Source of the DNA: Alphaproteobacteria bacterium
GTDB lineage: Bacteria > Pseudomonadota > Alphaproteobacteria > UBA1280 > UBA6503
DNA length: 64,000 nucleotides
NCBI GenBank assembly: GCA_021774615.1
Contig: JAJFIW010000036.1
Coordinates: forward strand, 37,318 to 101,317
Direction: 5' to 3'
Of the stretch, positions 22,108 to 37,904 are shown in pieces (the stretch's first letter is position 1; each line of letters begins with the position of its first letter). The position numbers and the translations under genes were made by a program. Below the pieces are notes generated by a model that did no database searches, had not been told where the DNA came from, and saw only the letters and a list, made by a program, of their open reading frames with translations.

Positions 22108-23889
22108 TTGTTTATGAATGTATTAAACACACCTACACCCACAACATCAAGTAACCTGCCACCACGGCTGGCCGATTTTAAAACCTTGGCCGAAGCTATG
22201 GACTATGCAGCACAAGGGGATACAGGCTTTAACTTTTACGATGTCCGTGGGAACTTAATAGATATACTTCCGTATAAAGAAATTCGTACTAAAGCGCAAC
22301 AACAAGCACAGCAACTTTTAGGGCTTGGGTTAAAGCGTGGCGACAGAGTAGGGATAGTTGCCGACATGGAACCTTATTTCCTAACAACTTTCTTTGCTTG
22401 TCAATATGCAGGGTTAATGGCTGTGCCTTTACCAGTTATTACAGGCCTTGGCGGCAGGCACGGCTACGAGCAACAACTAGAAAAAGTACTAACCACTTCA
22501 GAAGCAAAAGTTGCCATTGGGCCAGAAGATTTACAAAGCCACCTGTCTGAAGCTACCAAAAGTATGGAGATTAAACTTCTAACTCCAGAAATGCTAGACA
22601 CTCTAGCTATAGCAGATATAGCCCTTGCACCATTGCAAGCAGATGAAGAAAGCCATATTCAGTTTTCATCGGGCAGTACACGCCACCCTAAAGGGATTAT
22701 AATCAGTCAAAGCGCAATGCTTAATAATGCACACATGATAATGGTAGACGCCCTTAAAGGTAACGAATTTGGCTGTGTGGAGCGGGTGGCATCATGGTTG
22801 CCATTTTACCACGATATGGGGCTTATTGGCTGTATGCTAACCCCAATTTGCTGCCAATTCTCGGTAGATTTATTACATACCGACTCTTTTGCACGCCAAC
22901 CACTGCAATGGCTAAAACTAATTGCTCGCAACAAAGCTACAATATCGTTTGGCCCAACTTTTGGTTACGAAATTTGTGCACGCCGTGCTTCACGCCTTAA
23001 AGACGATACCCTTGACCTTTCCTCGTGGCGGGTGGCAGGCATTGGCGGCGAGATGGTACATGCACAACCTCTTTCCGACTTTGCTAGAGCATTTGCTCCA
23101 TATGGCTTTAAAAGCAGTGCCTTTACCCCTAGCTATGGTTTGGCAGAAGCTACCTTAGCTATTTCGTTTTCAGATGTAGACAAAGACGTTATGACCGATG
23201 CTGTAGACAAAAACTCACTATTAGCAGGTGATGCAATCCCTACTACTGAAGACAGCAGTGTAGACTCTGCCGAAACTAGAGTGCTAGTATCATGTGGAAC
23301 TCCTCTAAAAGGCTATAAGGTAGAGATTAGAGCTGAAGATGAAAGTATTTTACCCGAGCGTAAAGTAGGCCGAGTATGTGCCTCGACCCCAAGCTTGATG
23401 ACAGGCTACTTCCACGATGCAGAAGCCACCGCAGAAAGCATGCTCCCCGATGGTTGGTTGGACACAGGCGACATGGGCTATATGGTCGATGGGCAACTAG
23501 TGCTTACTGGCCGCAAAAAAGATATGATCATAATTAACGGGCGTAATATTTGGCCCCAAGACATGGAATGGCACGCCGAACAAAACATAGACATTCTACG
23601 TAGCCGCGACACAGCAGCCTTTGCGGTAGAAACAGAAACTGGTAAAGAAGAACCAGTAATGCTAGTGCAAACACGCACAATGGATGCAGACAAACAATCC
23701 CAGCTTGCAAAAGATGTGCATGCCGCAGTTATTAAAAATACAGGTGTTGACTGCCGAGTAGTCCTTGTGCCACAACGTAGCTTGCCTTATACTACTTCAG
23801 GCAAGTTAAGCCGAGCAAAAGCAAAAAAAGCCTACCTCGAAGGCACCATTAAACCCTTACAAATTGCTGGAGAAGAGTCAGCAGCATGA
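22108..23889 (+). CDS. Fatty acyl-AMP ligase / acyl-ACP synthetase (AMP-dependent synthetase family)
   Basis: 593 aa with adenylation motifs (SSGSTRHPKGIIIS; GYGLAE; DTGDMGY). It sits at the head of an ACP/Spt cluster. Confidence 0.8.
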   Translation: MFMNVLNTPTPTTSSNLPPRLADFKTLAEAMDYAAQGDTGFNFYDVRGNLIDILPYKEIRTKAQQQAQQLLGLGLKRGDRVGIVADMEPYFLTTFFACQYAGLMAVPLPVITGLGGRHGYEQQLEKVLTTSEAKVAIGPEDLQSHLSEATKSMEIKLLTPEMLDTLAIADIALAPLQADEESHIQFSSGSTRHPKGIIISQSAMLNNAHMIMVDALKGNEFGCVERVASWLPFYHDMGLIGCMLTPICCQFSVDLLHTDSFARQPLQWLKLIARNKATISFGPTFGYEICARRASRLKDDTLDLSSWRVAGIGGEMVHAQPLSDFARAFAPYGFKSSAFTPSYGLAEATLAISFSDVDKDVMTDAVDKNSLLAGDAIPTTEDSSVDSAETRVLVSCGTPLKGYKVEIRAEDESILPERKVGRVCASTPSLMTGYFHDAEATAESMLPDGWLDTGDMGYMVDGQLVLTGRKKDMIIINGRNIWPQDMEWHAEQNIDILRSRDTAAFAVETETGKEEPVMLVQTRTMDADKQSQLAKDVHAAVIKNTGVDCRVVLVPQRSLPYTTSGKLSRAKAKKAYLEGTIKPLQIAGEESAA

Positions 23890-24836
23890 CCAAAAAAGCA
23901 AGCGATATGCGTATAGCCGTTACAGGTGGTTCTGGTTTTATAGGCCAGCGTCTGCTCGAGAAATTAGCTGAACAAGGCTTTAAAGTAAATGCGCTCGAAA
24001 ACCGTACTCCACTATACACCCATGAAAATATTACCCCGATTAAAGGTGGTTTGACTGACACCAATGCCTTGCAAAAACTAGTTAAAGGTTGTGATGTTGT
24101 TGTGCACGGGGCAGGGTTAATAGCTGCTCGCCGAGGCGCAGACTTTTATAAGGTTAATACCGAAGGCACTCGCCGTTTAGCACAAATTGCCAGCTACGAG
24201 AAAAACGAAAGATTTTTACTTGTTTCGAGCTTGTCTGCTCGGGAATTTGAACTGTCGGACTACGGCATGAGCAAGAAAAAAGCAGAACAATCCCTTAGCA
24301 CATTTCATAACTTAAAATGGGATGCTATACGCCCACCTGCTGTTTATGGCCCAGGGGATATGCAATTTTTGATGCTAATGAAAATGGTTAAAAGCGGCAC
24401 GGTATTGCTTCCTGCAGGTAGAGACGCCAGAGCATCTCTAGTTTTTGTTGACGACCTTGTAGACGCTGTTATTTCTTGGATATATAACGCTAAGCCAAAC
24501 AGTAATGTGTACGAAATTGACGATGGTATGGAAAATGGCTATTTGTGGCAAGATGTAGCCGCAAAAGCTGCCGAAATTCTTAATGTCAGCCCACGGTATT
24601 TGGTCCCGCCAAAATCTTTAGTGCAGTTACTATCGTATGCTAGTTTTCTTGCAGGTGAGGTAACAAGAACTATTCCGGCCTTACCGCCAGAAAAAGCACG
24701 CCAACTTTGCCACCATAACTGGGTCTGTAATGACCATACACTTGGGGAAGATATTAACTGGAAACCACAAGTTAGCTTTGACGAAGGGTTTAAAAAAACT
24801 ATTGCTTGGTATCAGGCAGAAGGGTTGTTACAATAA
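23886..24836 (+). CDS. NAD-dependent epimerase/dehydratase-family SDR (candidate 3-ketodihydrosphingosine/ceramide reductase, CerR-like)
   Basis: Rossmann motif VTGGSGFIGQRLLEKL and an SDR YxxxK region (YGMSKKKAE). The position between the acyl-ACP synthetase and the ACP mirrors the Caulobacter sphingolipid locus. Confidence 0.6.
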   Translation: MTKKASDMRIAVTGGSGFIGQRLLEKLAEQGFKVNALENRTPLYTHENITPIKGGLTDTNALQKLVKGCDVVVHGAGLIAARRGADFYKVNTEGTRRLAQIASYEKNERFLLVSSLSAREFELSDYGMSKKKAEQSLSTFHNLKWDAIRPPAVYGPGDMQFLMLMKMVKSGTVLLPAGRDARASLVFVDDLVDAVISWIYNAKPNSNVYEIDDGMENGYLWQDVAAKAAEILNVSPRYLVPPKSLVQLLSYASFLAGEVTRTIPALPPEKARQLCHHNWVCNDHTLGEDINWKPQVSFDEGFKKTIAWYQAEGLLQ

Positions 24837-24866
24837 CTACCTCTTTTTAATCTAAAGGAATAGACT

Positions 24867-25118
24867 ATGGCACAGACAACGCACGCACAAATAGTAGATA
24901 AAATCTGCGAAGAATTAAAAAGTATTGATACGGGTATCAAAATTGACCTGTCGGCTGATACTAACATGACTACTGATATCAAAGTAGACTCGTTGGATGT
25001 TATGGAATTAGTATTTGCATTAGAAGAAGCTTTTGATGCATCTATCCCAGTTAATGACTTAAGCGATGTATTTACAATTGGTGAGCTTGCATCACTAGTA
25101 CAAAAAAACATGGACTAA
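24867..25118 (+). CDS. Acyl carrier protein (dedicated, cluster-associated)
   Basis: 83 aa with the phosphopantetheine attachment motif DSLDVMELVFALEEAF. Confidence 0.85.
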   Translation: MAQTTHAQIVDKICEELKSIDTGIKIDLSADTNMTTDIKVDSLDVMELVFALEEAFDASIPVNDLSDVFTIGELASLVQKNMD

Positions 25119-25146
25119 CTAAAATATAATTTCTAAGGATAAAACT

Positions 25147-26337
25147 ATGGCAGACTTGCTCGATAAATTCCGCTCATTAAAAGAAATCCACACCAACATT
25201 GTAGAAATGGTGGGGCGTGACCCTTTGGGTGTACCATTCGAAAAAATGATATCACCAACCGAAGCGGTTATCGGCGGTAAAAATTGCGTATTGCTTGGTT
25301 CCAATAACTACCTTGGGCTTACATTCTACCAAGAGGGGATGGACGCTGCAAAGGCTGCTATTGATAAATCTGGAACTGGTACAACAGGCTCGCGGATGGC
25401 AAATGGTAGCTATAGTGGCCATATGGCTTTAGAAAGAAAGTTGGCCGAATTTTATGGTAAAAAACATGCCATGCTATTTACTACGGGCTATCAGGCTAAT
25501 GTAGGCTTTATTTCGGCTATTTCTGGCAAAGATGACTATATCTTTATCGATGCCGACAGCCACGCTAGTATTTATGATGGCTGTAAATTGGGTGATGGCA
25601 CAGTTATTCGCTTTCGCCACAATAATGCTGACGACTTAGCTCGCCGTTTGAAAAAACTCCCTGCAGATTCTAATAAAATAGTAATTGTTGAGGGCATATA
25701 CTCTATGTCGGGCGACCGTGCGCCATTAAAAGAGCTAGTTCGTGTAGCAAAAGAGTATAACGCCTACATCATGGTAGACGAAGCACACTCCTTAGGTGTT
25801 CTGGGCGAAAATGGTCGAGGGCTACTTGAAGAAGTAGGCGTTGAGGATGATGTAGACTTTGTGTTGGGTACATTCTCTAAAAGTGTTGGTACGATTGGCG
25901 GTTTTTGTGTGTCTAACCACCCTGAAATCGAAACAATGCGCTTTGCGTCACGTGCTTATATGTTTACAGCATCACCACCACCATCTATCGTGGCATCAGC
26001 AAGCGCAACCTTAGATTATATCCGCGATACACCAGAACTGCGTAAAAAACTGTGGGCAAACACCGATGTTGTCTACGATTCTTTAAAAGCTATGGGCTAT
26101 AAAGTAGGGGTAGAGAAAACCCCAGTTATAGGCATCCAAATGCCAAGCCTTGAAGAAGGCATTAGGGTTTGGAATGTATTGTTCGATAACGGTGTATATG
26201 TAAACATGGCATTACCACCAGCAATACCAATGGGTAAATGCTTACTCCGCTGCTCACCATCGGCAGCCCATACCCCCGAGCAACTCGAGCAAGTTGTGGC
26301 TGCATTTACAAAGGCACAACCTGCGGTCGCTGCTTAA
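25147..26337 (+). CDS. Alpha-oxoamine synthase; serine palmitoyltransferase-like (PLP-dependent aminotransferase class II)
   Basis: 396 aa with the PLP-lysine motif GTFSKSVGTIGG plus typical AOS blocks (GSNNYLGL; DEAHSLGVLG). Confidence 0.8.
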   Translation: MADLLDKFRSLKEIHTNIVEMVGRDPLGVPFEKMISPTEAVIGGKNCVLLGSNNYLGLTFYQEGMDAAKAAIDKSGTGTTGSRMANGSYSGHMALERKLAEFYGKKHAMLFTTGYQANVGFISAISGKDDYIFIDADSHASIYDGCKLGDGTVIRFRHNNADDLARRLKKLPADSNKIVIVEGIYSMSGDRAPLKELVRVAKEYNAYIMVDEAHSLGVLGENGRGLLEEVGVEDDVDFVLGTFSKSVGTIGGFCVSNHPEIETMRFASRAYMFTASPPPSIVASASATLDYIRDTPELRKKLWANTDVVYDSLKAMGYKVGVEKTPVIGIQMPSLEEGIRVWNVLFDNGVYVNMALPPAIPMGKCLLRCSPSAAHTPEQLEQVVAAFTKAQPAVAA

Positions 26338-26364: not shown

Positions 26365-27078
26365 ATGTTTAAAATATTAGTTCTATCCTTATTTATTATT
26401 ACTCCATATTCTGCAACTGCAGAAACTATAGATGCTTTCATAAGTAAAATAGAGAAGGCATTCTCCATAGCGGATGTAGAAAATCGCAAACAAGCTATGC
26501 TAGAGCTTTTTTATTTACCAAATGCAGATGGAGAAGATATTAAAATGTACCATGATAGGATTATTGATAAACGCCTTGGTAAGCTAGAAGCTCCTAAATT
26601 GGGTACGGAGGCTTTACCCGAAGACTTTGTAATGAGCTATGTTAATAATGGTATAGAGTTTAAAGCCACGCTTACTCCTGTGGGTATGTTAACTTTTAAT
26701 GAAAAAATGAAAATACCATACGGTAAAAAACCAGATGGTAATTTTGCACTTGCTGGAATGCTTAAGCACAACGTAATAGCTAATGCCCCAGAAGACGTTG
26801 TATTAAACATGATGGTTATGGGTATGGGTAACCCTCCCGTTAGATTTTCTGGCTACTGTGATGTTATGCAAGCCAATAATAAAACTAGGCGCATGACATT
26901 CGAAGACAATAATAATGGTAATAATACATTGGCTACATGGGCGCAATATGTACACTCGTGCGAAGTAAAAAAACTATCTACACATGGTACACTTCAACTT
27001 AGAATTACCGCTGGGGATACTGATATATTTAAAAAAGTTATTTCTGAGAAAGACAGAAAAATTATTTACCAGCACTAA
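26365..27078 (+). CDS. Secreted/periplasmic hypothetical protein
   Basis: Signal peptide MFKILVLSLFIITPYSATA. No recognised domain. Confidence 0.4.
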   Translation: MFKILVLSLFIITPYSATAETIDAFISKIEKAFSIADVENRKQAMLELFYLPNADGEDIKMYHDRIIDKRLGKLEAPKLGTEALPEDFVMSYVNNGIEFKATLTPVGMLTFNEKMKIPYGKKPDGNFALAGMLKHNVIANAPEDVVLNMMVMGMGNPPVRFSGYCDVMQANNKTRRMTFEDNNNGNNTLATWAQYVHSCEVKKLSTHGTLQLRITAGDTDIFKKVISEKDRKIIYQH

Positions 27079-27998
27079 CCCACAATCTTGCGAGTAAGGA
27101 CTTTATAAAGCAATGGCCAGCCACCGATTAGGGGGTGACGGCGTTGGAAGTCTGTGGCTTCAATGCGTTCGCCGGTGTGGCGTTCGATTTTCCAGATTAT
27201 ATAGTCTACAGCGCCATCAAAAGTGAGCGGGGCTTTTATAAGGCGTAGTAGTGTTACCAGCTTACCGCTTAAGCGCCTAATTGGTGTGTTTAGTTTTTTA
27301 AATAGATGCTGCTTAGAGCTAGACTGTATAGCAAACTTGTTGTTATCTTCTTTTCTTAATAACTTAGGGTTATTTTGGGCAAAAAGTTCGGTGCATTTAT
27401 CAAACCGTGTTGGCGATGCATCGTATATAGAGTTTTGCCTTGCTTTTGACTCGCTCCGCAATTCTGACCCATATGTGTCGGCCATGCCTGTGGTCCAGAT
27501 TTCTTGTGGGGTAACTGTGCCTTGTAATAGTGGGATACTGCGGCGGTGGAATGTTTCTACTGCCATTGCTAAAGAGTCAATAACTTTGTTTTCTCTATGT
27601 TTGCCACGTGCCCAAACAAGCCTGCAAGGCTGCGAGAACCTTGCCCATATACTTGGTGCAACACTCCAACCATTAGCAGCTCTTTCAAACTGCTTAACAG
27701 TCATAACGGCGTATTTACAACGTAGAGTTTTGCCATCATGGGAAATTTCTTTGTAGTAAACATTGGGTGGTAAAATAGCACCCCAAAAACGGTGGCTTAG
27801 TGGTGAGGATGCAGCTTTAAAGCTATCGACTAGTAAGTAAAAATCCATAACAGTGTCGTCGGCTAGTTCTTTCCAAAGGCCAGAACCATAAAACATAACT
27901 GCTGCTGCACCATTATTGCCTTTATAGATGCTTTCAGCCATTGCGATAACTTCGCCTTTGCAAGGGGTAAGGCATTCGTGCTTTATAAGGTCGCGCAT
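27075..27998 (-). CDS. Nucleotidyltransferase-fold protein, possibly Tam41/Mmp37-like (phosphatidate cytidylyltransferase-like)
   Basis: Minimal NTase motif (YGSGLWKELADDTVMDFYLLVD: GS...D.D). The size and helical C-terminal half resemble the eukaryotic mitochondrial CDP-DAG synthase Tam41. This is a low-confidence family call. Confidence 0.35.
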   Translation of the reverse strand: MRDLIKHECLTPCKGEVIAMAESIYKGNNGAAAVMFYGSGLWKELADDTVMDFYLLVDSFKAASSPLSHRFWGAILPPNVYYKEISHDGKTLRCKYAVMTVKQFERAANGWSVAPSIWARFSQPCRLVWARGKHRENKVIDSLAMAVETFHRRSIPLLQGTVTPQEIWTTGMADTYGSELRSESKARQNSIYDASPTRFDKCTELFAQNNPKLLRKEDNNKFAIQSSSKQHLFKKLNTPIRRLSGKLVTLLRLIKAPLTFDGAVDYIIWKIERHTGERIEATDFQRRHPLIGGWPLLYKVLTRKIVG

Positions 27999-28006
27999 AA
28001 AAAAGG

Positions 28007-28969
28007 CTAGGCCTTTCCTAGAGCAAAAGTAAATGGCTTTTCTATACTAACCGAGATTGGGGCATCTTCAGATGCTTGGTACATTTCGCCGTCAAGTGTC
28101 CACTCTCCATCAAAACTTAGGTCGCAACTATCTGTACGGAAACCAATGCAGCCGTCATCTTTTTTTGGGTCAAGAGGGTGTTTACCGAAAAGTAAGGTTG
28201 GTAAATGGTGGATAAACCGTTTGTATGGGTTAAATACACCCATAACTGACATCCCACCTTTACCTTGTTGTTGGGGCTTTATGCCTAGCAGCAGTTTATC
28301 TAGCGATGTAATTGTGAGAAATACAGTATCTACCTTTTGGGTTGTAGAGTTGTGTTTAATAGTTGTAGGTGTTGGTTTTAATAATAAATCTTCTGTTGGT
28401 TTTCCTTGTGCTAAGCGCCATAGCATAATTGCCATAGTTACGCTTTCGCTAAAAGTGCTATTAAAACCACGGTCATGGAGGTTTTTACGTGTTTTATGGA
28501 TAACCCTAGGGATGGCAGATGTACCAAGGAAAAAACCGTATAATGGAGTTTTTCTAGTGTCTGATTTTACTGCAATTGGAGCACGAGAAACAGTTTTAAC
28601 AATACCTTCATCAGCCCATTGCAAAAGGTCTAGTATAGGTTGGTTCGAGTCGCCACTAAAACCAACATCTTTATGGGCCATATTGGTTGTGCCTGCATCA
28701 TAAAGGGCTATGGTAGGCTCTTTTTTGAATAGTTTTTTTGCCCGTAGCTCTGTCATAACGGTATCTAGTGTGCCATCGCCACCAATAATTGCTAGGTAAT
28801 CTGCATTTTTTGCTGCTATATCTTCGAGAGCTTGGGGGATGTCATCTACCGAGTTTGTTTGTTGAAAAACAATGTTCTTAGCATTGCGGACGCTATCTAT
28901 ATGGCTATGGATAGCTCCACGCCTTTTTTTACCGCTATTAGGGTTGTAAATAACACCAATAATTGCCAC
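28007..28969 (-). CDS. Lipid kinase of the DAGK_cat family (diacylglycerol/sphingosine/ceramide kinase-like)
   Basis: N-terminus IGVIYNPNSGKKR... and the catalytic GGDGT motif (IIGGDGTLDTV). This is the YegS/BmrU/LCB5-type fold. Confidence 0.7.
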   Translation of the reverse strand: MAIIGVIYNPNSGKKRRGAIHSHIDSVRNAKNIVFQQTNSVDDIPQALEDIAAKNADYLAIIGGDGTLDTVMTELRAKKLFKKEPTIALYDAGTTNMAHKDVGFSGDSNQPILDLLQWADEGIVKTVSRAPIAVKSDTRKTPLYGFFLGTSAIPRVIHKTRKNLHDRGFNSTFSESVTMAIMLWRLAQGKPTEDLLLKPTPTTIKHNSTTQKVDTVFLTITSLDKLLLGIKPQQQGKGGMSVMGVFNPYKRFIHHLPTLLFGKHPLDPKKDDGCIGFRTDSCDLSFDGEWTLDGEMYQASEDAPISVSIEKPFTFALGKA

Positions 28970-28973
28970 AGGT

Positions 28974-30146
28974 TTACCTCTCTAACCATGATATAACACG
29001 GCCACCTGTTAAAACTTTAAATTCAGCCTGTATAATCTGTAGTAAGTGTACCAGTAATGAGGCAAAAGTCCAACCAGCAATTGCCCAAACAGCCCAGTCT
29101 GGGCGGTTTATAACAACACAAGCTGTCATTAGCAGCATGTTTGGGTTGCGACGGGCTGTAATTAGCCTGAAGAAACTATCAAACTTACGCCAAATATGCA
29201 TATGGATATGGAAACGAACAATAAAGTACCCCTCTAATATGCGTTGTGCCACATAGCCACCAACAATAACTATAAGTAGCATATTAAGAGTTTCTTTTGG
29301 TAACTCCATGCCCACATGTACTAGCCCGTAAGCCCAAGCTACATACCAAAATGGTGGGTGGATAAGGTCTGTACCGTGATCTAGGATATTCCCTATTTTT
29401 GACGATGTAAATGTAACCCTAGCAAGCTTGCCGTCTACAGTGTCAAGGAATGTCATAATCCAGCCAGCTAGTAGACCTAATGCATATTGCCCTTCCCAAA
29501 AGAGGAATAGAGCATAAAACATTAGAATTATGCCAGCAATAGTAACCATATTAGGGCTTATATTTGCTTTAATACACCATTTAGTTACAACCATTGCAGG
29601 GCGAGGCCAAAAATATTTAGTAACAAAGTCTGTTACACCTTTATATGTTCCCATGAAAATTCGGTGTTCTGTTTGTTTAAGAGTCTCATCATCAAGCTTC
29701 AAACAGTAAGGAGCTTCTTTTTTGCGCAAATCCGAGTCAAAGTTACCGCCAATAGTAGCAGTTGTTTTGGCCTCCAACCCTGTAGGGATATCATTTTTGC
29801 CTTGTAGCCATTTTATTGCAGCAGCAGCTTGTTTTGGTATGGTGTGCACTGCTAGCGGGACATTATTGTCTGTCAAAACTGTTTGGGTACTGTCGATAAG
29901 ACCAGATAAAATAGGTTTGTCGTATGCATAGTCTGTCATTATTAGAATAATGGTATTATTACTGGGTACAGTGTTTAAATCTGATTCTTCAATGACTTCT
30001 ATATTCATATTGCTAAATATGCGGCGTAGGCGTTCAGCACCACTTAGCCCCCAAACTTTAGGGGAAATGTTAGTGCCACGGTTCAATAAAACCACCGTAA
30101 TGGCATTTAGTTGTGATGGTTGTTTGACATTTGCAGTATTTTTCAT
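28974..30146 (-). CDS. CDP-alcohol phosphatidyltransferase-family membrane enzyme with an extra N-terminal soluble domain (fusion)
   Basis: Exact CDP-OH PT signature DG(x2)AR(x8)G(x3)D(x3)D (DTVDGKLARVTFTSSKIGNILDHGTD) in the membrane-embedded C-terminal half. The N-terminal ~150 aa soluble domain may be a cytidylyltransferase-like module, as in archaeal IPCT/DIPPS fusions. Confidence 0.75.
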   Translation of the reverse strand: MKNTANVKQPSQLNAITVVLLNRGTNISPKVWGLSGAERLRRIFSNMNIEVIEESDLNTVPSNNTIILIMTDYAYDKPILSGLIDSTQTVLTDNNVPLAVHTIPKQAAAAIKWLQGKNDIPTGLEAKTTATIGGNFDSDLRKKEAPYCLKLDDETLKQTEHRIFMGTYKGVTDFVTKYFWPRPAMVVTKWCIKANISPNMVTIAGIILMFYALFLFWEGQYALGLLAGWIMTFLDTVDGKLARVTFTSSKIGNILDHGTDLIHPPFWYVAWAYGLVHVGMELPKETLNMLLIVIVGGYVAQRILEGYFIVRFHIHMHIWRKFDSFFRLITARRNPNMLLMTACVVINRPDWAVWAIAGWTFASLLVHLLQIIQAEFKVLTGGRVISWLER

Positions 30147-30184
30147 AACAATGACTTTACCTAAATTAAGGGATACATAAATTT

Positions 30185-31039
30185 ATGTTATTTGCACACA
30201 TTACTGATATTCATTTACCGCTTACTAAAGCGAAGCCGTACGAACTTATCAGTAAGAGGGTTTTATCGTATCTATCTTGGCATCTCAAGCGCAAAAATCA
30301 TCATATAGACGAAGTTACTAATTTGTTGTTAGAAGATATGCGTTCTTTTAAACCTGACCATATTTGTGTTACAGGTGATATTACCAACCTAGGGTTGCCC
30401 TCTGAAATGGCGCAAGCTAAGGTATGGCTTGATAACTTAGCCCCTGTCGAACAAATTAGTTTTGTTCCTGGCAACCATGACGCGCTTGTTTACTCCGCAG
30501 AAAAAAGAATTAAAGAATTTTTTGGCAAATGGATGATTTCTGATGACAGTAGTGCAGAATTACCATTTTTACAGGTTAAAGGTAATATAGCTTTTATTGG
30601 TGTAGACTCGGCCATTGCTACAAAGCCTTTTTCTGCTAGAGGCAAGGTAGGCAAAAAACAGATGGCAAGGTTAGAAAAAATTCTACAGGAAACAAAAGAA
30701 AAAGGCTTGTATCGAGTTGTTCTTATTCACCACCCTCCATTACTTGACATGGTCGAGAAAAAACGAAAAAGCTTGATTGATGCTCCAGAGCTAGAAAAAG
30801 TCTTGGAAAGATCAGGTGCTGAGCTAGTAATACATGGGCATAATCATATCCCCATTCACCGTAAAGTTGGGCAAACAGATATTTTCGGTGCAGGGTCTGC
30901 TTCTATGGTTGACCCAGACGGTAAAGGGCTTGCTCACTATAGTATTTACAGTATTGATGATAATAATAAGTTAACCGTAGAGCATCGGGTTTATGACTTA
31001 GACAGTAAAAAATTTGTTGCCTATAAATCACACGATTAA
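30185..31039 (+). CDS. Metallophosphoesterase (calcineurin-like phosphoesterase)
   Basis: Motifs DIHLP, VTGDITNLG, GNHD, and a HGHNH region. Confidence 0.75.
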   Translation: MLFAHITDIHLPLTKAKPYELISKRVLSYLSWHLKRKNHHIDEVTNLLLEDMRSFKPDHICVTGDITNLGLPSEMAQAKVWLDNLAPVEQISFVPGNHDALVYSAEKRIKEFFGKWMISDDSSAELPFLQVKGNIAFIGVDSAIATKPFSARGKVGKKQMARLEKILQETKEKGLYRVVLIHHPPLLDMVEKKRKSLIDAPELEKVLERSGAELVIHGHNHIPIHRKVGQTDIFGAGSASMVDPDGKGLAHYSIYSIDDNNKLTVEHRVYDLDSKKFVAYKSHD

Positions 31040-31130
31040 TATTTTTTCGGGTTTTTATAAAAATACTGTATACAAAAGTATGTTTATTGTGGCATAAAGA
31101 CATTTGTAAATATGGAGAAATTTTTGGTCT

Positions 31131-31901
31131 ATGAAAGCTATTATTCTTAGTGCAGGGCAAGGCACACGATTATTACCAATGACAGAACAAACACCTAAGT
31201 GTTTACTGCCTTTAGCTGGTGGTACAAATATACTTCGTTGGCAGCTAGACCAACTAGAAGAAGCTGGTATTAAAGAAACTATCGTAGTAACAGGTTTTCA
31301 TGCTGATAAAGTTTGCACAGAGCTTGCAATGCCGCGAGCCTTCATGAAAACAAAAGCAGTTTATAACCCATTTTTTAAAGTAGCCGATAACCTTGGTAGT
31401 GTTTGGATTGCACGTCAAGAGATGACAGAAGACTTCATCCTACTTAATGGTGATACTCTATTTACAACCGATGTTGTACAGCGCCTTATTGCTAATGCTC
31501 ACCAACCAATAACAGTTACAGTTGCTTATAAAGACAGATACGACTCTGATGACATGAAAGTTACCTTAAAAGACGAAGGTATTGTTCATTCAATCGGTAA
31601 AACTATTGATATGAGCAATGTTGATGCTGAGTCCATCGGTATGATTATGTTCCGTAACCATGGTAGTAAAACATTCCGTGAAGCTGTAGAAACAGTAATG
31701 ATGGATCAAACATCATTAAAAAGATATTATCTGTCTGTAATCGATATGCTTGCAAAAGGCATTACTATCGGTACAGCAGAAGCACTACAAGAAGAGTGGT
31801 GCGAGGTTGACTTCCCGCTTGACTTTGAAAGAGCGCAAAAAGCCATTACTAACTGGCAGTCTATGATGAGCCCTTCCATTCAAGGTGCTGTCACAGCTTA
31901 G
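31131..31901 (+). CDS. Nucleotidyltransferase (NTP_transferase family; LicC/phospho-sugar or phospho-alcohol cytidylyl/nucleotidyltransferase-like)
   Basis: N-terminal signature MKAIILSAGQGTRLLPMTEQTPKCLLPL. Confidence 0.7.
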   Translation: MKAIILSAGQGTRLLPMTEQTPKCLLPLAGGTNILRWQLDQLEEAGIKETIVVTGFHADKVCTELAMPRAFMKTKAVYNPFFKVADNLGSVWIARQEMTEDFILLNGDTLFTTDVVQRLIANAHQPITVTVAYKDRYDSDDMKVTLKDEGIVHSIGKTIDMSNVDAESIGMIMFRNHGSKTFREAVETVMMDQTSLKRYYLSVIDMLAKGITIGTAEALQEEWCEVDFPLDFERAQKAITNWQSMMSPSIQGAVTA

Positions 31902-31909
31902 TTTAGTTA

Positions 31910-32710
31910 CTATTGACGACTATTAAAGATCTGGCGCACTAGCGTCAGGTCTTCTTTTTTATCTACATCAATAGCAGCTTCAGGAGTTTGCATAAGCTTA
32001 AGGTAAATGTTGCACTTTGTTAGTTTATTAAGGCGTTTTATAATATTTTCTCTGCGTAGACTGCCCATCATATAGCGTAATAAAACAATAAAGCCCACAA
32101 CAAAAGCTAATTTTATTGGGGTTTTACGGCTGTTCTCAGCTTTTTGCCAGAAATTAGCTACATTGGCTGATTTTGGCTGATTAAATAAAAATAGGTTACA
32201 ACCCCCAATCGCACCATCAGCAAAGCTCAGGCGGGTACGTTTAACTTGTGGGTAGGCATTTTCTACTATATCTACTTTGGCTATTGCTGCTGTAAAATCA
32301 GCCTCTAAGGTTGCTTTATCTTGAATAAACTCGTCAAGGATCTGGTGGTCTAATAAGGGGTGGTCGGCGGTTGTAACTAAAACAGGTTTTTTTATGTCTT
32401 TAAGCCCCATAATAATGCTTTTACAAGGCGTTGTTCCCGTTTCTATAATGCGTATCTTGCCTTTATTTAGTAACTCGTATAGAAGGGGAGCTTCTTCTGA
32501 CATCGCAAACTCTTTTGAGATACTAACCGTTATACCAGCAGTTTTTGGCCATGTATTTAAAGTATGTAATACACGGTCTATCATTGGTGTGCCTGCAATA
32601 TCTACAAATGCTTTGCACAGCTTACCTTCGCCTTTGGCTATAGGGTCGCCACTTTGGCGGCTACCTGCAAGTAATAAAATATTAAATTTTTGCTCTGTTT
32701 CTTCGGGCAT
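31910..32710 (-). CDS. MobA-like/IspD-like nucleotidyltransferase (NTP_transf_3 family)
   Basis: N-terminus ILLLAGSRQSGDPIAKGEGKLCKAFVDIAGTPMIDRVL, matching the glycine-rich loop of the small cytidylyl/guanylyltransferase family. Confidence 0.5.
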   Translation of the reverse strand: MPEETEQKFNILLLAGSRQSGDPIAKGEGKLCKAFVDIAGTPMIDRVLHTLNTWPKTAGITVSISKEFAMSEEAPLLYELLNKGKIRIIETGTTPCKSIIMGLKDIKKPVLVTTADHPLLDHQILDEFIQDKATLEADFTAAIAKVDIVENAYPQVKRTRLSFADGAIGGCNLFLFNQPKSANVANFWQKAENSRKTPIKLAFVVGFIVLLRYMMGSLRRENIIKRLNKLTKCNIYLKLMQTPEAAIDVDKKEDLTLVRQIFNSRQ

Positions 32711-32712: not shown

Positions 32713-33840
32713 TTAGGCAATACCTTTTTCATATATACGATATTTTTTATTAAGGGTACCGCCAACAAACTCGATGATTTTGCTCATTGGTTTGTTGTCT
32801 TCTAGGATCCATGACAGCTCAACTTGTTCAAAACTTTTCTTTTGCCCAATTTCATGGATATGCACAACTAGTGCTGCAGCCAGTGCACCGCCTAGGGTTG
32901 TTCCTTGGTGCTCTTTACGAATGCCCATTAAAACAACACGCCCACCTTTTGTACCACGAACCTTTAGACGCCAAAGCAGCTTAAGCCACCCAAAAGGGAA
33001 CAAGCTTCCTTTTAAGTCTTTAATAGCTTCGTTTACATCTGGTAAGGCAATAATCATTCCTGCGGATTTACCATCAACCGAAATAATTCGTGCGAGATCT
33101 GGATCTATAAGTGGCTTTAGGTTTTTGGCCATGTAGCTTATTTCTTCTGCAGTCATTGGGGTGAAACCCCAGTTATTTGACCAGGCATCGTTAAAAATAT
33201 CCATAACTAGTTTTAGCTCTTGGTCTAAATTTTTAACATCTATTGCTCGCTCTTGTACTTTAGGGTTACGCATAGCATATTTTGCCATACGCTTTGCATT
33301 AGCAGGGAAAGGGTTTGCAACCTCAAGGTTATAAGCAAAAAGATCTTGAACTTTTTTATAACCATCTTTTTCTAGAGATTTTGCATACCAAGGCTTTGCA
33401 TAGTTCATTAGTAGGCGTGCAGAGCTATCAAAGCCTTCCACTAACAAACCAACCTCATCGTTAATAGATAAGCTATAAGGCCCCGTTACTTTTTTTATAC
33501 CTTGCCCTCTAAGCCACTCTTCAGCTTCGATTAGTAGTGCTCTTAGTGTGGTTTCGTCTGCGGCTTCTAAGCAACCAAAGTGGCCAGTGTTCTTAGAGTC
33601 TTCCTCTTGGTGGTCAACCTGTGCACTAATCCGCCCTACAGGCTTTCCTTCAGGGTTATAAGCAACAAATAATTGGCAATCAGCATGGTCAAAAAAGGGG
33701 TTTTTCTTTGGGTTTAAATGTTCTTTACGTTCCATTGTAAGTTGCTGCACGTAGTTTTCATCGTCCTGATATAAATAATTAGGAACATTGATAAAATCAG
33801 TCAGACATTTATGGCTATTTGCAGAACAAACCTTAATCAT
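32713..33840 (-). CDS. GNAT-like N-acyltransferase, candidate bacterial ceramide synthase (bCerS-like)
   Basis: 375 aa with a C-terminal GNAT-type acyl-CoA binding motif (VVLMGIRKEHQGTTLGGALAAAL). The gene is co-located with the Spt/ACP/reductase genes and a sphingolipid-type hydroxylase. The functional call is by context. Confidence 0.4.
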   Translation of the reverse strand: MIKVCSANSHKCLTDFINVPNYLYQDDENYVQQLTMERKEHLNPKKNPFFDHADCQLFVAYNPEGKPVGRISAQVDHQEEDSKNTGHFGCLEAADETTLRALLIEAEEWLRGQGIKKVTGPYSLSINDEVGLLVEGFDSSARLLMNYAKPWYAKSLEKDGYKKVQDLFAYNLEVANPFPANAKRMAKYAMRNPKVQERAIDVKNLDQELKLVMDIFNDAWSNNWGFTPMTAEEISYMAKNLKPLIDPDLARIISVDGKSAGMIIALPDVNEAIKDLKGSLFPFGWLKLLWRLKVRGTKGGRVVLMGIRKEHQGTTLGGALAAALVVHIHEIGQKKSFEQVELSWILEDNKPMSKIIEFVGGTLNKKYRIYEKGIA

Positions 33841-34625
33841 TAACTAGCAAGCTTTCTTGTTGGTTTTTTGCGGTCAACACCTTCTATGGCAGATCTCTCT
33901 TCATCTAAGTCTGGAGTTAGTCTTGCGACCCATGGGTACAGTCTAACTTCTTCGCCAGTGTAGCCAAGGTTAAATACAGTTGGGCTTTTACCACCTTGGT
34001 CTTTTGCTGATGGTTTAAATGTACCAAATAGCATGTCTGGCCAAAAGGTAATAATACCAAAGTTAACATTTTCGTTGAAAAAATGGTGCTGTAGGTGCCA
34101 ACGCTTAATTTTTCTGAAAAATGCTGTTTTTGGCTCGTAGTTTAAATGTTGCCCACAATGGCAAAACTCGTAAATACAAGTCATGATGATGCCAGCACTA
34201 ATTGCGGTTGCCATACCGGCCAACCCACCGATAGCATAGCCAATAGGTGATGTTGCAATAAAAATTGTAGGTAGTGTTGTGTACAGCGCGCCAAAAAGTA
34301 CTTTAAGGTCGTAAGGGTCGCGGTGGTGGTCAAAGTGGATACGTTTCCAAGCGGTTGCTGTTATCTTAGAGCGATACAGGAACTGACCATGCAGTATATA
34401 GCGGTGTAGCAAATACCAAACCATCGGGTAGGCGACTGCTACTGCTAGTATTATATAACCAGTAGTGCTTGCTTCAATCCCCCAATGCCATGCCAAATAG
34501 CCGCTAACTGCTGCCAAAACTAGGTAAATATGAATATCTAAGTACATAAAAAATGCTACAAAAAGGTCTTTAAGGTTCATTTCGTCAAGACGATAGTCTT
34601 GTTTCCAAATGTTAAGTGCTTTCAT
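33840..34625 (-). CDS. Fatty acid hydroxylase superfamily membrane enzyme (sphingolipid/sterol desaturase-hydroxylase-like)
   Basis: Di-iron histidine boxes HFDHHRDPYD, HCGQHLNY and HLQHHFF, with 3-4 TM helices. Confidence 0.75.
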   Translation of the reverse strand: MKALNIWKQDYRLDEMNLKDLFVAFFMYLDIHIYLVLAAVSGYLAWHWGIEASTTGYIILAVAVAYPMVWYLLHRYILHGQFLYRSKITATAWKRIHFDHHRDPYDLKVLFGALYTTLPTIFIATSPIGYAIGGLAGMATAISAGIIMTCIYEFCHCGQHLNYEPKTAFFRKIKRWHLQHHFFNENVNFGIITFWPDMLFGTFKPSAKDQGGKSPTVFNLGYTGEEVRLYPWVARLTPDLDEERSAIEGVDRKKPTRKLAS

Positions 34626-34768: not shown

Positions 34769-35998
34769 ATGTTCAAGATACCTGCAACTGCTGCCGATTT
34801 TCATGCAGAATTAACAGATCTACAGCAAAAATTCCAAGCGATGGAGCCAGAGCTAGAGCTGACCATCCGTGATCCTGAAATGGGGGTAGAAGGCTATGTT
34901 GTAGTGTGGAATACAGGCATTAGCCTTGGCGGGGCTTTACCAGCTTGTGGTAAAGGCGGAACACGAGTTACTAAGGACTTAAAGCTAGATGATGTTAAAC
35001 GCCTAGCACGAGCTATGGCTGAGAAAAATGCAGCAGCAGGCTTGCCTTTAGGCGGGGCAAAGTCTGGGTTGCGCCTTGATCCGACATCTCCAGATTACGA
35101 AAAAAAATATCGCCGTTTTGTCGAACTCTGTAAGCCAATTTTACATGAGCATGGCGGTATCTTTGGTGGTTTCGGCTATGATGTGGGGTGTATCCCGCCT
35201 AAAAATGCAATTTGGGCATGCGACCAACTAAAAAGTAACCGTAGCTTTACAGGTAAACCTGTAGATATGGGCGGTACAGACTATGACAAAGAGGGGATAG
35301 CAGGTCTTGGGGTTGCTGTTGCTGCTAAAACCCTTATTGAAGAAAATGGCAATACTGCCCAAGGCAGTACGTTCGCAGTACAAGGAGTAGGCGCAATGGG
35401 CGCAGCTATTATCCGTTACTTTGTTGATTATGGCGGAGTTTTAAAATACCTATCCGATCCTAAATACGGCGGAACATGGGGCATAAATAACACTCCATCA
35501 GCTGATCTTATCGACGCACTAGCCCATCAGAAAAAAGATATAGCTATCGACTTACTAGCAAAAGAGGCTACAAAAATATCAGACGACTGCACCGAAGCTC
35601 TCTATGCAGATGTTGATGTGCTATTCCCTAGTGCTATGGAAGATGTTTTGCATAAAGGTAATGCAGCTAAAGTTAAAGCTAAATTTATGGTAGAGGGGGC
35701 TAATAACCCAACCACAGCCGAAGCACACCAAATCTTGTTTGATAAAGGCATTAAAGCCGTGCCAGACATTATTTCTAACCCTGGTGGGATTATTGCAGCA
35801 TTTGTTGAGCTTACCTCAAAAGCAACCTCAGAAGAAAATGTAAAAACACACATTAACGTGACAAACGCTAAAGAAATGACCATTACCAAGGTATCAGAAA
35901 ATACTAAAAAATTAGTTAATATAGTGAACACTCTAAAAGTGCGCCCAGACCTAGCAGGCGACTATATGGCATACCGTAATATTTTTTATGGGCTGTAA
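34769..35998 (+). CDS. Glu/Leu/Phe/Val-family amino acid dehydrogenase (glutamate dehydrogenase-like)
   Basis: Catalytic Lys region GLPLGGAKSG and Rossmann motif FAVQGVGAMGAA. Confidence 0.75.
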   Translation: MFKIPATAADFHAELTDLQQKFQAMEPELELTIRDPEMGVEGYVVVWNTGISLGGALPACGKGGTRVTKDLKLDDVKRLARAMAEKNAAAGLPLGGAKSGLRLDPTSPDYEKKYRRFVELCKPILHEHGGIFGGFGYDVGCIPPKNAIWACDQLKSNRSFTGKPVDMGGTDYDKEGIAGLGVAVAAKTLIEENGNTAQGSTFAVQGVGAMGAAIIRYFVDYGGVLKYLSDPKYGGTWGINNTPSADLIDALAHQKKDIAIDLLAKEATKISDDCTEALYADVDVLFPSAMEDVLHKGNAAKVKAKFMVEGANNPTTAEAHQILFDKGIKAVPDIISNPGGIIAAFVELTSKATSEENVKTHINVTNAKEMTITKVSENTKKLVNIVNTLKVRPDLAGDYMAYRNIFYGL

Positions 35999-36001
35999 GC
36001 T

Positions 36002-36039
36002 AAAAAGCCCTATGTGTTTAAGTACATAGGGCTTCTTTT
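36002..36039. terminator. Bidirectional terminator (aaaaagccctatgtgtttaagtacatagggcttctttt)
   Basis: 11-bp inverted repeat flanked by A and T tracts, between convergent genes. Confidence 0.75.
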
Positions 36040-36051
36040 AGGTTGCATTAT

Positions 36052-37434
36052 TTAAGCAAGTGCTTGCTCTTTTTCTTTACTTTTTTGTGGTTTGTTATTC
36101 TCGCGATAATTACTTACTTGCGCTTCTATTTCTTGCGCGTCATCAACAACAACCATTGCTGCATGTACGACACTTCCATCCTTAAGCTTACTTGAGTGAG
36201 TTACAGTTTTTAGCCCTGTCTCATTTTGTATTTTTTCGGCTATGGCTTCTGCACCTTCTCTAGTTTCGGATGTAACATATACACTGGGGTGTTCTTCCCC
36301 TTGGATCCCATGACTAGTATAAGCTGAATGGCCTCTCGGTAATTTATTGTCTTGAATTACGCTTGAAACTTTATTTGCTGCACGAAGTTGTGCTCTGTAC
36401 TGTTCGTCATTAACCTGTTCATTTTTAACTAATGTTGGGTTTTCCTCATTTAAAACCTGAGGGTCATAATTATCAGGATATACTTTTGGGGTATTAACAG
36501 ATTTTGTTAGCGTCTCTTCTCGACGCACTAGATCTTCATCTGTTTTAGCTGATAGCTTATGCATAAGCTTGTCATTCTTATCTTTTGCTTCAAGGTAGTT
36601 ACCTATTTGTACAGTTACTTCTCGTGGGTCTTCTACAATTAGCATCGCCATGTGCTGAGTTGTACCGTCTTCAAGTTTTTTGGATGCTGTGACAAAATTT
36701 AAGCCAGTTTGTTCTTTTAGGTCATTTGCTACTGCTTGAGCAGCTTCTTGAGTATCCCCACAGTTAATACGTACATTAGGGTGTTTTGCACCACCATTAC
36801 CACCGTCAATGCTGCAAGATAGGTGGCTTGGTAGCAAACCACCACTCTTATTTCTTAGTAAGTTGCCAACATCCTGTGCTGCTGTCATTTTTTCTTTATA
36901 TCTTGTAAGAGATACCTCTTTACAAGGGTTTGGCGAGTCTTCAACAGCATAGTCTTTGCCAGTTTTTCTTTCTTCGTTATAACTAGCATATTTACTGCCC
37001 TCAACCATTTTATGACCTTTTGGGGGCTTAGATATAGGTATGCCTAATTCTTTAAATTGTTGCTCAATCTCGTACAGCTCTTTCTCCCAATATGCAGTAT
37101 CTTTTCCGTCTGCATGTACTAAAAGACCTTCTTCAGAGTTTGGGTTTATCCGTAAATCATTTTCGCCTCTAATCGGAACATCAACTACTGGGGAATCATC
37201 TTTTTCTGTGACTATACGTCCTAGAACAATGCCATAGCCTTTAGCTTCATCACCTTTACCTATTTTAAAACCAAAGTGGTAGCCTTTAAATACTCTTTTC
37301 TCACCTGGCTTGGCAGTCCTAAATTTTTCACTATCATATACAAACCCGCTACCTGTATAGTCACAATCAGGTAATTGACCACTTGCTTCCAATTGGTTGG
37401 TTATATCTTCTCTTGTATATTTAGATTCTACCAT
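36052..37434 (-). CDS. Hypothetical protein with an internal tandem duplication of a ~60-aa domain (effector-like)
   Basis: 460 aa. Two homologous modules: CGDTQEAAQAVANDLKEQTGLNFVTASKKLEDGTTQHMAMLIVEDPREVTVQIGNYLE and SETREGAEAIAEKIQNETGLKTVTHSSKLKDGSVVHAAMVVVDDAQEIEAQVSNYRE. No known catalytic motif. Confidence 0.5.
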   Translation of the reverse strand: MVESKYTREDITNQLEASGQLPDCDYTGSGFVYDSEKFRTAKPGEKRVFKGYHFGFKIGKGDEAKGYGIVLGRIVTEKDDSPVVDVPIRGENDLRINPNSEEGLLVHADGKDTAYWEKELYEIEQQFKELGIPISKPPKGHKMVEGSKYASYNEERKTGKDYAVEDSPNPCKEVSLTRYKEKMTAAQDVGNLLRNKSGGLLPSHLSCSIDGGNGGAKHPNVRINCGDTQEAAQAVANDLKEQTGLNFVTASKKLEDGTTQHMAMLIVEDPREVTVQIGNYLEAKDKNDKLMHKLSAKTDEDLVRREETLTKSVNTPKVYPDNYDPQVLNEENPTLVKNEQVNDEQYRAQLRAANKVSSVIQDNKLPRGHSAYTSHGIQGEEHPSVYVTSETREGAEAIAEKIQNETGLKTVTHSSKLKDGSVVHAAMVVVDDAQEIEAQVSNYRENNKPQKSKEKEQALA

Positions 37435-37658
37435 TGTAAAAGCCCTATGTTTTGTTTCCCATATACAAGTGATGTGTTCTTTTTTTATAAAAACAAGCCC
37501 CTTAGAGACAACAAAATGAGGATAGGGGTAGGGGATTTATTTTATAATTACATTCTGAATACTTGAAAAACTAAGAATAATCCCAACAATAAGCAGTACA
37601 TACAGAAACATCTTTATTTATTTTTATATTTTTGGGCATTGCCCGAGGAAAATTAATC

Positions 37659-37904
37659 ATGAACAAAAGAAATAAAAGAAATAACCAGAAGCCTAAATTG
37701 TCATTTCAGGTAAAAACAACTAATGGAACCGTAAGTTTTTATGGCCCATACTTGTTATGCTTTATATTGGCTTTTATGCTTTTCTTTGCACTTAACGGTG
37801 CAGGTTGGTTTTTATCCCTGTTTTTAGGGGGATTTTCTGGTTTATTGACTGGGGTCACAGCAATGGCAGCATATGCTGTCTATTTAACTGAACCTAAACA
37901 TTAA
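37659..37904 (+). CDS. Small membrane protein, tandem family member 1 (82 aa from the conserved start)
   Basis: Start chosen at the ATG preceded by the conserved AGGAAAA RBS. Basic N-terminus MNKRNKRNNQKPK, then two hydrophobic helices. Confidence 0.5.
   Translation: MNKRNKRNNQKPKLSFQVKTTNGTVSFYGPYLLCFILAFMLFFALNGAGWFLSLFLGGFSGLLTGVTAMAAYAVYLTEPKH

Follow-up and report, generated by a model that had tools for sequence, protein, structure and literature searches.

The 64,000-nucleotide stretch of an uncultured alphaproteobacterial genome analyzed here (contig JAJFIW010000036.1; hereafter the window) carries, at positions 27075-32710, six adjoining genes that very probably constitute the cpg head-group module of a Caulobacter-type sphingolipid cluster, turning ceramide into ceramide phosphoglycerate (CPG) and then into CPG2, which bears a second phosphoglycerate. 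In Caulobacter crescentus, six genes adjoining spt carry out this conversion (PMC11324152), and further work has described the same CPG/CPG2 genes (PMC9393093, PMC12275187). The function of the cpg module is the installation of a phospho-head group on ceramide, and the window module is a further copy of the described pathway and no novel route. A first-pass annotation, made from the DNA letters, had placed the six genes between the Spt core and the bCerS/hydroxylase genes, and both the open reading frames (ORFs) and their flanks are as it described; its general idea of a phospho-head group added to ceramide is also borne out by the one-to-one orthology with the Caulobacter CPG/CPG2 genes. It had further called the module unusual, and this view has to be abandoned, as each gene is the reciprocal best match of a Caulobacter CPG/CPG2 gene and the local gene order is conserved. 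The six genes are as follows (protein lengths in amino acids, aa).

27075-27998, minus strand: cpgC-like gene for a Tam41-fold nucleotidyltransferase, 307 aa, orthologue of CC_1161/CCNA_01219 and last gene of the cpgA-cpgB-cpgC operon.
28007-28969, minus strand: cpgB-like gene with a GTG start, for a DAGK-fold lipid kinase, 320 aa, orthologue of the ceramide kinase CpgB (CC_1160).
28974-30146, minus strand: cpgA-like gene for a CDP-alcohol phosphotransferase, 390 aa, by Pfam and by orthology to CC_1159/CpgA.
30185-31039, plus strand: gene for a CC_1158-like metallophosphoesterase, 284 aa (Pfam Metallophos, 1.5e-17), divergent from cpgA across a 38-bp spacer.
31131-31901, plus strand: cpgD-like gene for a LicC/COG1213-type CTP:phosphoglycerate cytidylyltransferase, 256 aa, by Pfam and by orthology to CC_1152.
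31910-32710, minus strand: gene for a CC_1153-like nucleotidyltransferase of the MobA/CofC type, 266 aa; the gene closes the hydroxylase-cerS-CC_1153 operon and is convergent with cpgD.

The identification is carried by a comparison with a Caulobacter sp. contig (L002) that holds the entire CC_1152-CC_1168 cluster in the published order, with BLASTP run in both directions. All six window proteins are full-length reciprocal best matches of their Caulobacter counterparts, with E values from 1e-17 to 2e-116 and 27-46% identity. The L002 CpgD has all the residues expected at the published C. crescentus numbering, which confirms the gene identities of the reference contig independently. Local order and orientation are common to the window and Caulobacter: cpgA, cpgB and cpgC form an operon, the metallophosphoesterase gene points away from cpgA, and cpgD and the cerS-CC_1153 operon run toward each other. 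Eight more genes of the cluster lie within the window (aasR, cerR, acpR, spt, cerS, lptF2, lptG2 and CC_1157). The catalytic motifs of the module proteins are intact and each gene has hundreds to thousands of homologues, so the six ORFs are real genes. With regard to domains, Pfam supports five of the six first-pass assignments, namely the DAGK-like kinase, the CDP-OH transferase, the two NTP-transferases and the metallophosphoesterase; the Tam41-like call for the sixth is taken up below.

Following the Caulobacter work, the pathway would start with the CpgB-like kinase, which would convert ceramide into ceramide-1-phosphate, as CC_1160/CpgB has been shown to do in vitro (PMC10331486). The Tam41-fold CpgC-like protein would then be necessary for the passage from ceramide-1-phosphate to CPG, in line with the deletion of CC_1161/cpgC, which retains ceramide phosphate and loses CPG (PMC9393093). 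The likeliest chemistry for this second step would be activation of the lipid phosphate by CTP to CDP-ceramide, with subsequent displacement of CMP by glycerate. In a third step the CpgD-like enzyme would make CDP-glycerate from CTP and 2-phosphoglycerate, the activity of the CTP:phosphoglycerate cytidylyltransferase CC_1152/CpgD in vitro (PMC12275187), for which crystal structures are available (PMC13228409). The CpgA-like transferase would next move phosphoglycerate from CDP-glycerate onto CPG to yield CPG2, as suggested by family chemistry and by genetics, where deletion of the CDP-alcohol transferase CC_1159/CpgA loses CPG2 and retains CPG (PMC9393093). Finally, the CC_1153-like nucleotidyltransferase would be required for CPG2 and the CC_1158-like metallophosphoesterase would contribute to it; in Caulobacter, the CofC-like CC_1153 is necessary for CPG2 and the phosphoesterase CC_1158 has a contributing role (PMC11324152). 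The product would probably be exported by the neighboring LptF2/LptG2 permease.

The first-pass annotation had offered two logics as alternatives, a CDP-alcohol donor transferred onto ceramide or a ceramide activated as CDP-ceramide, but the published model uses both at successive steps. The donor logic is the one proposed in that model for the second phosphoglycerate (CpgD, then CpgA), and is not an alternative to lipid activation. Of the CDP-ceramide logic, what agrees with the published model is lipid activation by the kinase and CpgC at the first step, whereas the proposed coupling by CpgA is contradicted by cpgA mutants that make CPG.

As to the nature of the head group, the 256-aa CpgD-like protein matches Pfam NTP_transferase/NTP_transf_3 (~1e-13), its best sequence match in PDB is LicC (1jyk, 9e-11), and it shares 45% identity with Caulobacter CpgD (E 3e-67, reciprocal best match). 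The ligand contacts described for CpgD are the catalytic Arg16, Gly12 and Gly111 at the ribose, the Thr88 backbone and the Thr93 hydroxyl at the cytosine, and a glycerate pocket (PMC13228409). The window protein retains eight of the eleven ligand residues unchanged: G12, R16, N90, N110, G111, M147, K161 and S170, which correspond to G9, R13, N87, N106, G107, M142, K157 and S168 in its own numbering. The changes are T93 to S, which keeps the hydroxyl, T88 to A, at a backbone contact, and W201 to Y. All five glycerate contacts (N90, N110, S170, M147 and K161) are thus among the identical residues; among 25 orthologues four of them are invariant and S170 is a serine in 22. No inositol-phosphate synthase and no phosphoenolpyruvate (PEP) mutase was found among the ~50 window ORFs scanned, which comprise the larger ORFs plus the acyl carrier protein and HIT genes of the cluster. 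Given this result and the conserved CpgD pocket, phosphoglycerate would be the best-supported head group on sequence grounds.

It is very unlikely that the module installs something else here, whether inositol phosphate (as in inositol phosphorylceramide, through a CDP-inositol route), phosphoglycerol, phosphoethanolamine or a phosphonate. That reading could appeal to the transferase, whose best NCBIfam matches are archaetidylinositol-phosphate synthase, phosphatidylinositol-phosphate (PIP) synthase and IPCT-DIPPS, and whose structural model resembles the IPCT-DIPPS entry 4mnd, as well as to the 256-aa nucleotidyltransferase, with its 1.5e-18 match to the IPCT half of IPCT-DIPPS. However, the scores are far under the family cutoffs: the 390-aa protein reaches 44 bits against 170 and 51 against 180 for the PIP and archaetidylinositol-phosphate synthase models (NF045883 and NF040950) and 34 against 580 for IPCT-DIPPS (NF041135), the latter over its transferase half only, which leaves it outside these families, and the IPCT-DIPPS scores taken together range from 34 to 67. 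The scan of the ORFs and the five identical glycerate contacts also speak against another head group, and for all six genes the Caulobacter CPG2 cluster offers closer matches over the full length. Two particular candidates, an inositol head group and a phosphonate one of the Bacteriovorax type, prompted by the G+C content and by weak PntC and IPCT matches, were rejected, as the ~50 ORFs scanned yielded neither an inositol-phosphate synthase nor a PEP mutase and the CpgD pocket is conserved.

The 320-aa protein shows the Pfam DAGK_cat domain (9e-15) and aligns over its full length with L002 CpgB (27% identity, E 1e-17, 72 bits, reciprocal best match). Its GGDGT motif occupies residues 63-67; the GDGT part (64-67) is kept in 67 of 68 orthologues and G63 is a glycine in 52 of them. 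Against the NCBIfam YegS/DgkB models it remains far under the cutoffs (30 bits for TIGR00147, with a cutoff of 118). By sequence, it resembles CpgB more than the lipid kinases YegS/DgkB and is a predicted ceramide kinase by orthology. The gene starts 4 nt past cpgA and ends 8 nt ahead of cpgC, in the same order as in Caulobacter.

The 307-aa CpgC-like protein shares 34% identity with L002 CpgC over 300 aa (E 2e-48, reciprocal best BLASTP match). It has no Pfam match at E<=0.1 and no NCBIfam match, and a profile search against the PDB sequences gave nucleotidyltransferase and Tam41 matches below significance only. It has at least 1,451 homologues, a few of them with PF09139 (Tam41_Mmp37). Its AlphaFold model, built from an input alignment of 32 sequences, has a pLDDT of 92 and a pTM of 0.88, and the best PDB matches by Foldseek are three Tam41 entries, 7ecd (with CTP-Mg), 6ig4 and 6ig2 (E 2e-9 to 3e-7, TM-score 0.49-0.61, 275-289 aligned columns), while the next-ranked matches, aminoglycoside nucleotidyltransferases, are weaker by about five orders of magnitude. 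In agreement, the Tam41_Mmp37 cutoff of Pfam (24 bits) is exceeded by 3 of 32 family members, with scores of 28-31 bits; these three share 36-37% identity with the window protein. Eleven residues (G38, S39, D52, K95, R120, F121, Q123, Y176, R181, E183 and K255) are invariant in 82 of 82 CpgC orthologues and E179 is a glutamate in 81; G38-S39...D52 forms the nucleotidyltransferase motif, and a hidden Markov model alignment of CpgC with FbTam41, itself below significance, shares YGSG...D, KY, RFxxP and Y-x-G-[DE]-x-R. The Tam41-like call of the first-pass annotation was therefore well founded, on the structural matches and on the three relatives. As judged from the model, the 307-aa protein is Tam41-like in fold and by remote homology; it is a remote sister family of Tam41_Mmp37 and not a member of it by the criterion of Pfam.

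Whether CpgC makes a liponucleotide is a more delicate matter. We tentatively propose, as a possibility that falls short of being probable, that the CpgC-like protein of 307 aa acts as a CTP:ceramide-1-phosphate cytidylyltransferase with CDP-ceramide as its product. A CDP-ceramide route had been presented in the first-pass annotation as new biochemistry, but an NDP-activated ceramide was already in print in 2024, as a speculation (PMC11324152, Conclusions). In the literature searched, we found no report of the sphingolipid liponucleotide CDP-ceramide, nor the term itself. If CpgC does make it, one pathway would combine opposite logics: the first phosphoglycerate would be installed through activation of the lipid, as with CDP-diacylglycerol, and the second through activation of the head group, in the Kennedy manner. 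A separate enzyme would then couple CDP-ceramide to glycerate.

The 390-aa CpgA-like protein has 46% identity with Caulobacter CpgA over 366 aa (E 2e-116). Pfam CDP-OH_P_transf (PF01066) covers residues 197-329 only (1e-10, 42.6 bits, cutoff 22), and the signature of the CDP-alcohol phosphotransferases (CDP-APs), D235xxD238G239xxA242R243x8G252xxxD256xxxD260, is invariant in 45 orthologues. In the full-length model (pLDDT 91), an N-terminal cytidylyltransferase-like domain (~residues 15-135) is followed by juxtamembrane helices and a six-transmembrane CDP-alcohol phosphotransferase domain. This model superposes on AF2299 (4q7c, 4o6m and 4o6n) over 375-391 columns, with E 3e-13 and TM-scores of 0.66/0.76, and less well on IPCT-DIPPS (4mnd; E 9e-11, TM-score ~0.5). 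Among CDP-APs, a cytidylyltransferase-like domain at the N-terminus is known from two, AF2299 and DIPPS; the donor bound by AF2299 is soluble CDP-glycerol (PMC4634129).

The N-terminal domain, soluble and alpha/beta, of ~135 residues plus a linker, had been singled out in the first-pass annotation as a fusion reminiscent of bifunctional IPCT-DIPPS proteins. The domain is real, and in the model it resembles cytidylyltransferases of the AF2299/IPCT type. However, CpgA homologues, the 375-aa Caulobacter proteins included, span 92-100% of its length, so the extension is the normal architecture of the CpgA family and no novel fusion. No conserved glycine-rich NTP loop (GxGxR) occurs in the domain in the family alignment, where E38 and R39 are its only invariant residues, which makes a second active site improbable. 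From the alignment, the domain probably serves a structural or regulatory role and does not form another catalytic unit of the kind present in bifunctional IPCT-DIPPS.

The role of CpgA is also where a scheme of pure lipid activation departs from the published steps. In that scheme the kinase and the Tam41-like enzyme would provide CDP-ceramide, the 390-aa transferase would use it to attach the first head-group alcohol, and the metallophosphoesterase would remove a terminal phosphate in the manner of PgsA/Pgp, with the two soluble nucleotidyltransferases as accessories. The Tam41 fold of CpgC fits such a scheme, and so does the six-transmembrane class of CpgA, which includes all bacterial enzymes with a CDP-lipid donor and a soluble acceptor (PMC4634129); PIP synthases are the best NCBIfam and PDB sequence matches of CpgA, and a variant of the scheme is discussed in PMC11324152 (Conclusions). 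We nevertheless consider it unlikely. Deletion of cpgA in Caulobacter abolishes CPG2 while CPG is still formed, and in a double mutant of CC_1159 and CC_1160 the kinase alone suffices to bring CPG back (PMC9393093; PMC11324152, section 8). The first phosphodiester is hence made by an enzyme other than CpgA. Moreover, CPG2 formation depends on CpgD, whose product in vitro is CDP-glycerate (PMC12275187). In whole-structure comparison CpgA comes closest to AF2299, which takes a soluble CDP-glycerol donor (PMC4634129), and the co-occurrence partner of CpgA is CpgD rather than CpgB/CpgC.

The two remaining proteins are orthologues as well. The 284-aa metallophosphoesterase scores 65 bits against Metallophos (PF00149; cutoff 21.5) and is 37% identical to L002 CC_1158 (E 1e-49, reciprocal best match). 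Its metal motifs D8xH10, G64D65, G96N97H98D, H182H183 and G218H219xH221 are present and are conserved in 37 orthologues, and the divergent arrangement with cpgA is also found in Caulobacter. The 266-aa protein matches Pfam NTP_transf_3 (9e-9) and IspD (1e-8), with a weak match to the CofC C-terminal region; it aligns over its full length with L002 CC_1153 (33% identity, E 4e-37, reciprocal best match), and its best PDB match is TTHA0179 (2dpw, 8e-15).

A scan with one genome per species detected CpgC relatives in at least 594 species genomes. They extend over Alpha-, Beta- and Gammaproteobacteria, Geobacter/Desulfuromonadales, Myxococcota, Nitrospirales, Marinimicrobia, Calditrichota and Verrucomicrobiota (Chthoniobacterales). 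In 2022, homologues had been stated to be confined to Caulobacterales and Sphingomonadales (PMC9393093); the CpgC family is far more widespread than first reported. Among the matches listed, the nearest genome is that of 'Proteobacteria bacterium UBA6503' (L005), which is collinear with the window, including the flanking lpd and mscS, at 44-79% identity. Co-occurrence was counted for genes no more than 10 kb away from CpgC, in 57 loci (18 kb or longer) from species genomes, split by the presence of CpgA (31 with, 26 without); the loci are phylogenetically non-independent, and the Fisher p-values are only indicative.

CpgB: near CpgC in 26 of 31 loci with CpgA and 21 of 26 without.
CpgD: near CpgC in 18 of 31 loci with CpgA and 2 of 26 without.
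CC_1153: near CpgC in 25 of 31 loci with CpgA and 8 of 26 without.
Metallophosphoesterase: near CpgC in 20 of 31 loci with CpgA and 6 of 26 without.
HIT gene: near CpgC in 13 of 31 loci with CpgA and 0 of 26 without.

This pattern matches two recurring modules, CpgB+CpgC for the first phosphoglycerate and CpgA+CpgD+CC_1153+metallophosphoesterase (with or without the HIT gene) for the second, and fits the Caulobacter genetics (PMC9393093, PMC11324152). A short type of cluster holds only CpgB+CpgC, often with a fatty-acid hydroxylase, as in Sphingosinicella and Marinimicrobia (e.g. L017, L022, L030, L039 and L053), and a full type holds the six genes (e.g. L005, L008, L023, L037, L057, L066, L069 and L070); all six lie inside 10 kb in 11 diverse genomes. 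When stop-to-stop ORFs of the clusters with only CpgB+CpgC were grouped, no credible candidate for a CDP-ceramide:glycerate transferase emerged, most groups being antisense shadow ORFs of high-G+C genomes.

The same loci bear on the target of the module. One could suppose that it acts on a glycerolipid, on lipopolysaccharide or on another envelope polymer and lies beside spt and cerS by chance, given that four of the six activities are unassayed and that chemistry of the CDP-glycerol type serves teichoic acids. But cerS is within 10 kb of CpgC in 44 of the 57 loci, aasR in 36 and spt in 29, and deletion of each orthologue in Caulobacter specifically alters CPG/CPG2 (PMC9393093, PMC11324152, PMC12275187). 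A non-sphingolipid target is thus barely credible and already close to refuted.

Some considerations weigh against a direct transfer of the Caulobacter pathway to the window. To our knowledge, no enzyme is known for the coupling of an activated ceramide phosphate to glycerate. The head group is here a prediction from orthology and from the conserved CpgD binding site. The window CpgB and the assayed enzyme share just 27% identity, and a tblastn search of the window with Caulobacter CpgB as the query missed the gene; BLASTP detects the pair, and the miss reflects the low identity and not absence. Homologues of CC_1166 (putative flippase) and CC_1168 (LptC2) were not found within the window, and the hydroxylase of the window is not part of the Caulobacter cluster, so the final lipid may differ in detail. 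In addition, the activities of CpgC, CpgA, CC_1153 and CC_1158 are unassayed in every organism (PMC12275187, PMC13228409), and the second, fourth and fifth steps of the pathway are therefore models.

The module is flanked by further genes of the sphingolipid cluster.

22108-26337, plus strand: ceramide-backbone genes aasR-cerR-acpR-spt (Pfam AMP-binding, Epimerase, PP-binding and Aminotran_1_2).
32713-34625, minus strand: cerS (375 aa, GNAT-like) and the gene of a fatty-acid-hydroxylase-family protein (261 aa), upstream of the CC_1153-like gene in the same operon.
38884-41600, minus strand: genes of a HIT-domain protein (CC_1157-like), LptF2 and LptG2, a putative sphingolipid export permease operon.

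The products of aasR, cerR, acpR and spt are 44%, 32%, 37% and 53% identical to those of Caulobacter CC_1165-CC_1162, and CerS (32713-33840) is 44% identical to CC_1154 (E 5e-109). The 261-aa protein matches Pfam FA_hydroxylase (4.6e-18), and such a hydroxylase adjoins the cluster in 15 of 57 related loci. LptF2 and LptG2 match Pfam LptF_LptG at ~1e-65 each; together with the HIT protein they show 31%, 24% and 49% identity to CC_1156, CC_1155 and CC_1157, respectively, and the order HIT-lptF2-lptG2 is common to the window, Caulobacter and the closest relative L005. The HIT protein (143 aa, 41169-41600, minus strand; PF01230, 9e-7) is encoded by the first gene of this operon. HIT enzymes hydrolyze or transfer nucleoside monophosphates. 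The HIT protein could thus conceivably have a function involving CDP-activated intermediates, and if CDP-ceramide exists the protein might participate in CMP-transfer or hydrolysis chemistry. In published work CC_1157 is regarded as probably unrelated to sphingolipid synthesis.

Between spt and cpgC lies an ORF of 237 aa (26365-27078, plus strand) with a signal-peptide-like N-terminus and no family match, which shares 4 nt with the 3' end of cpgC. In 80 of 80 related loci it had no match (tblastn, 1e-8), and L005 has an unrelated ORF of 147 aa at this position. Relative to the collinear L005, an insertion (34769-38800) separates the hydroxylase gene from lptG2. It contains a gene for a Glu/Leu/Phe/Val dehydrogenase (34769-35998, plus strand), and a leucine-type dehydrogenase could supply branched-chain acyl primers. 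A second gene of the insertion (36052-37434, minus strand) encodes a 460-aa protein with no Pfam or NCBIfam match; it was considered as a homologue of the putative flippase CC_1166 and discarded, as the comparison gave no homology. Adjoining the HIT-lptF2-lptG2 operon, positions 41567-46614 (plus strand) encode a DUF6134 protein and, after it, an adaptor of the HlyD type and a pump of the AcrB family (RND) with 1036 aa. Further on, positions 48414-51228 hold two genes unrelated to the cpg module, for an indoleamine 2,3-dioxygenase-family protein (398 aa, IDO 2e-83) and for a 471-aa protein with a Thy1/ThyX domain on residues 44-213 only. IDO-family proteins and Thy1/ThyX proteins of this kind are uncommon in bacteria. 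No rRNA or other Rfam family was found in the window.

CPG and CPG2 are anionic sphingolipids that permit survival of Caulobacter in the absence of lipid A and are a target of polymyxin/colistin (PMC9393093, PMC11324152). The window adds no new system; its interest lies in a complete six-gene module kept as one unit with transport genes in a distant, low-G+C, uncultured proteobacterium. The modularity, the Tam41 fold of CpgC and the AF2299-type CpgA sharpen, but do not answer, the question of how ceramide-1-phosphate becomes CPG. Comparative leads are provided by the wide distribution of CpgC, the existence of two modules, the AF2299-type architecture of CpgA and the link between the HIT gene and the second module.

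Several known systems help to place these enzymes. CpgC shares with Tam41/TAMM41 (Mmp37), the CTP:phosphatidate cytidylyltransferase of mitochondria and Firmicutes, a fold of nucleotidyltransferase and winged-helix domains followed by C-terminal helices, but identity is only 13-16%, and the substrate implied by the Caulobacter genetics is ceramide-1-phosphate instead of the phosphatidate of Tam41. For the 256-aa protein, LicC/COG1213 is the closest solved relative by sequence, while its pocket fits CpgD, and hence phosphoglycerate, and not phosphocholine. The step proposed for the second phosphoglycerate, with a CDP-activated head group moved to a lipid hydroxyl, follows the Kennedy-type logic of CPT/EPT; those enzymes are of the type with 9-10 transmembrane segments, whereas the 390-aa transferase is of the six-transmembrane prokaryotic type. 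AF2299 of Archaeoglobus fulgidus superposes on that transferase over its whole length, with a soluble alpha/beta N-terminal domain packed on a six-transmembrane catalytic domain, and its donor CDP-glycerol is a small soluble CDP-alcohol analogous to CDP-glycerate (PMC4634129). Identity of the transferase to AF2299 and DIPPS is ~15%, and both act on non-lipids, whereas CpgA must act on a sphingolipid; IPCT-DIPPS differs further, as the N-terminal domain of the 390-aa protein is short and resembles the truncated domain of AF2299.

The closest system is the Caulobacter CPG/CPG2 cluster itself. The window differs from it in its host, an uncultured marine-type proteobacterium with ~40% G+C, in the insertion that sets the lptF2/G2 block apart from the biosynthetic genes, and in the fatty-acid hydroxylase inside the cluster. 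It has in common with Caulobacter all six genes as one-to-one full-length orthologues, the operon structure, the catalytic motifs and the substrate pocket of CpgD, together with the genes of ceramide synthesis, the lptF2/G2 pair and the HIT gene CC_1157.

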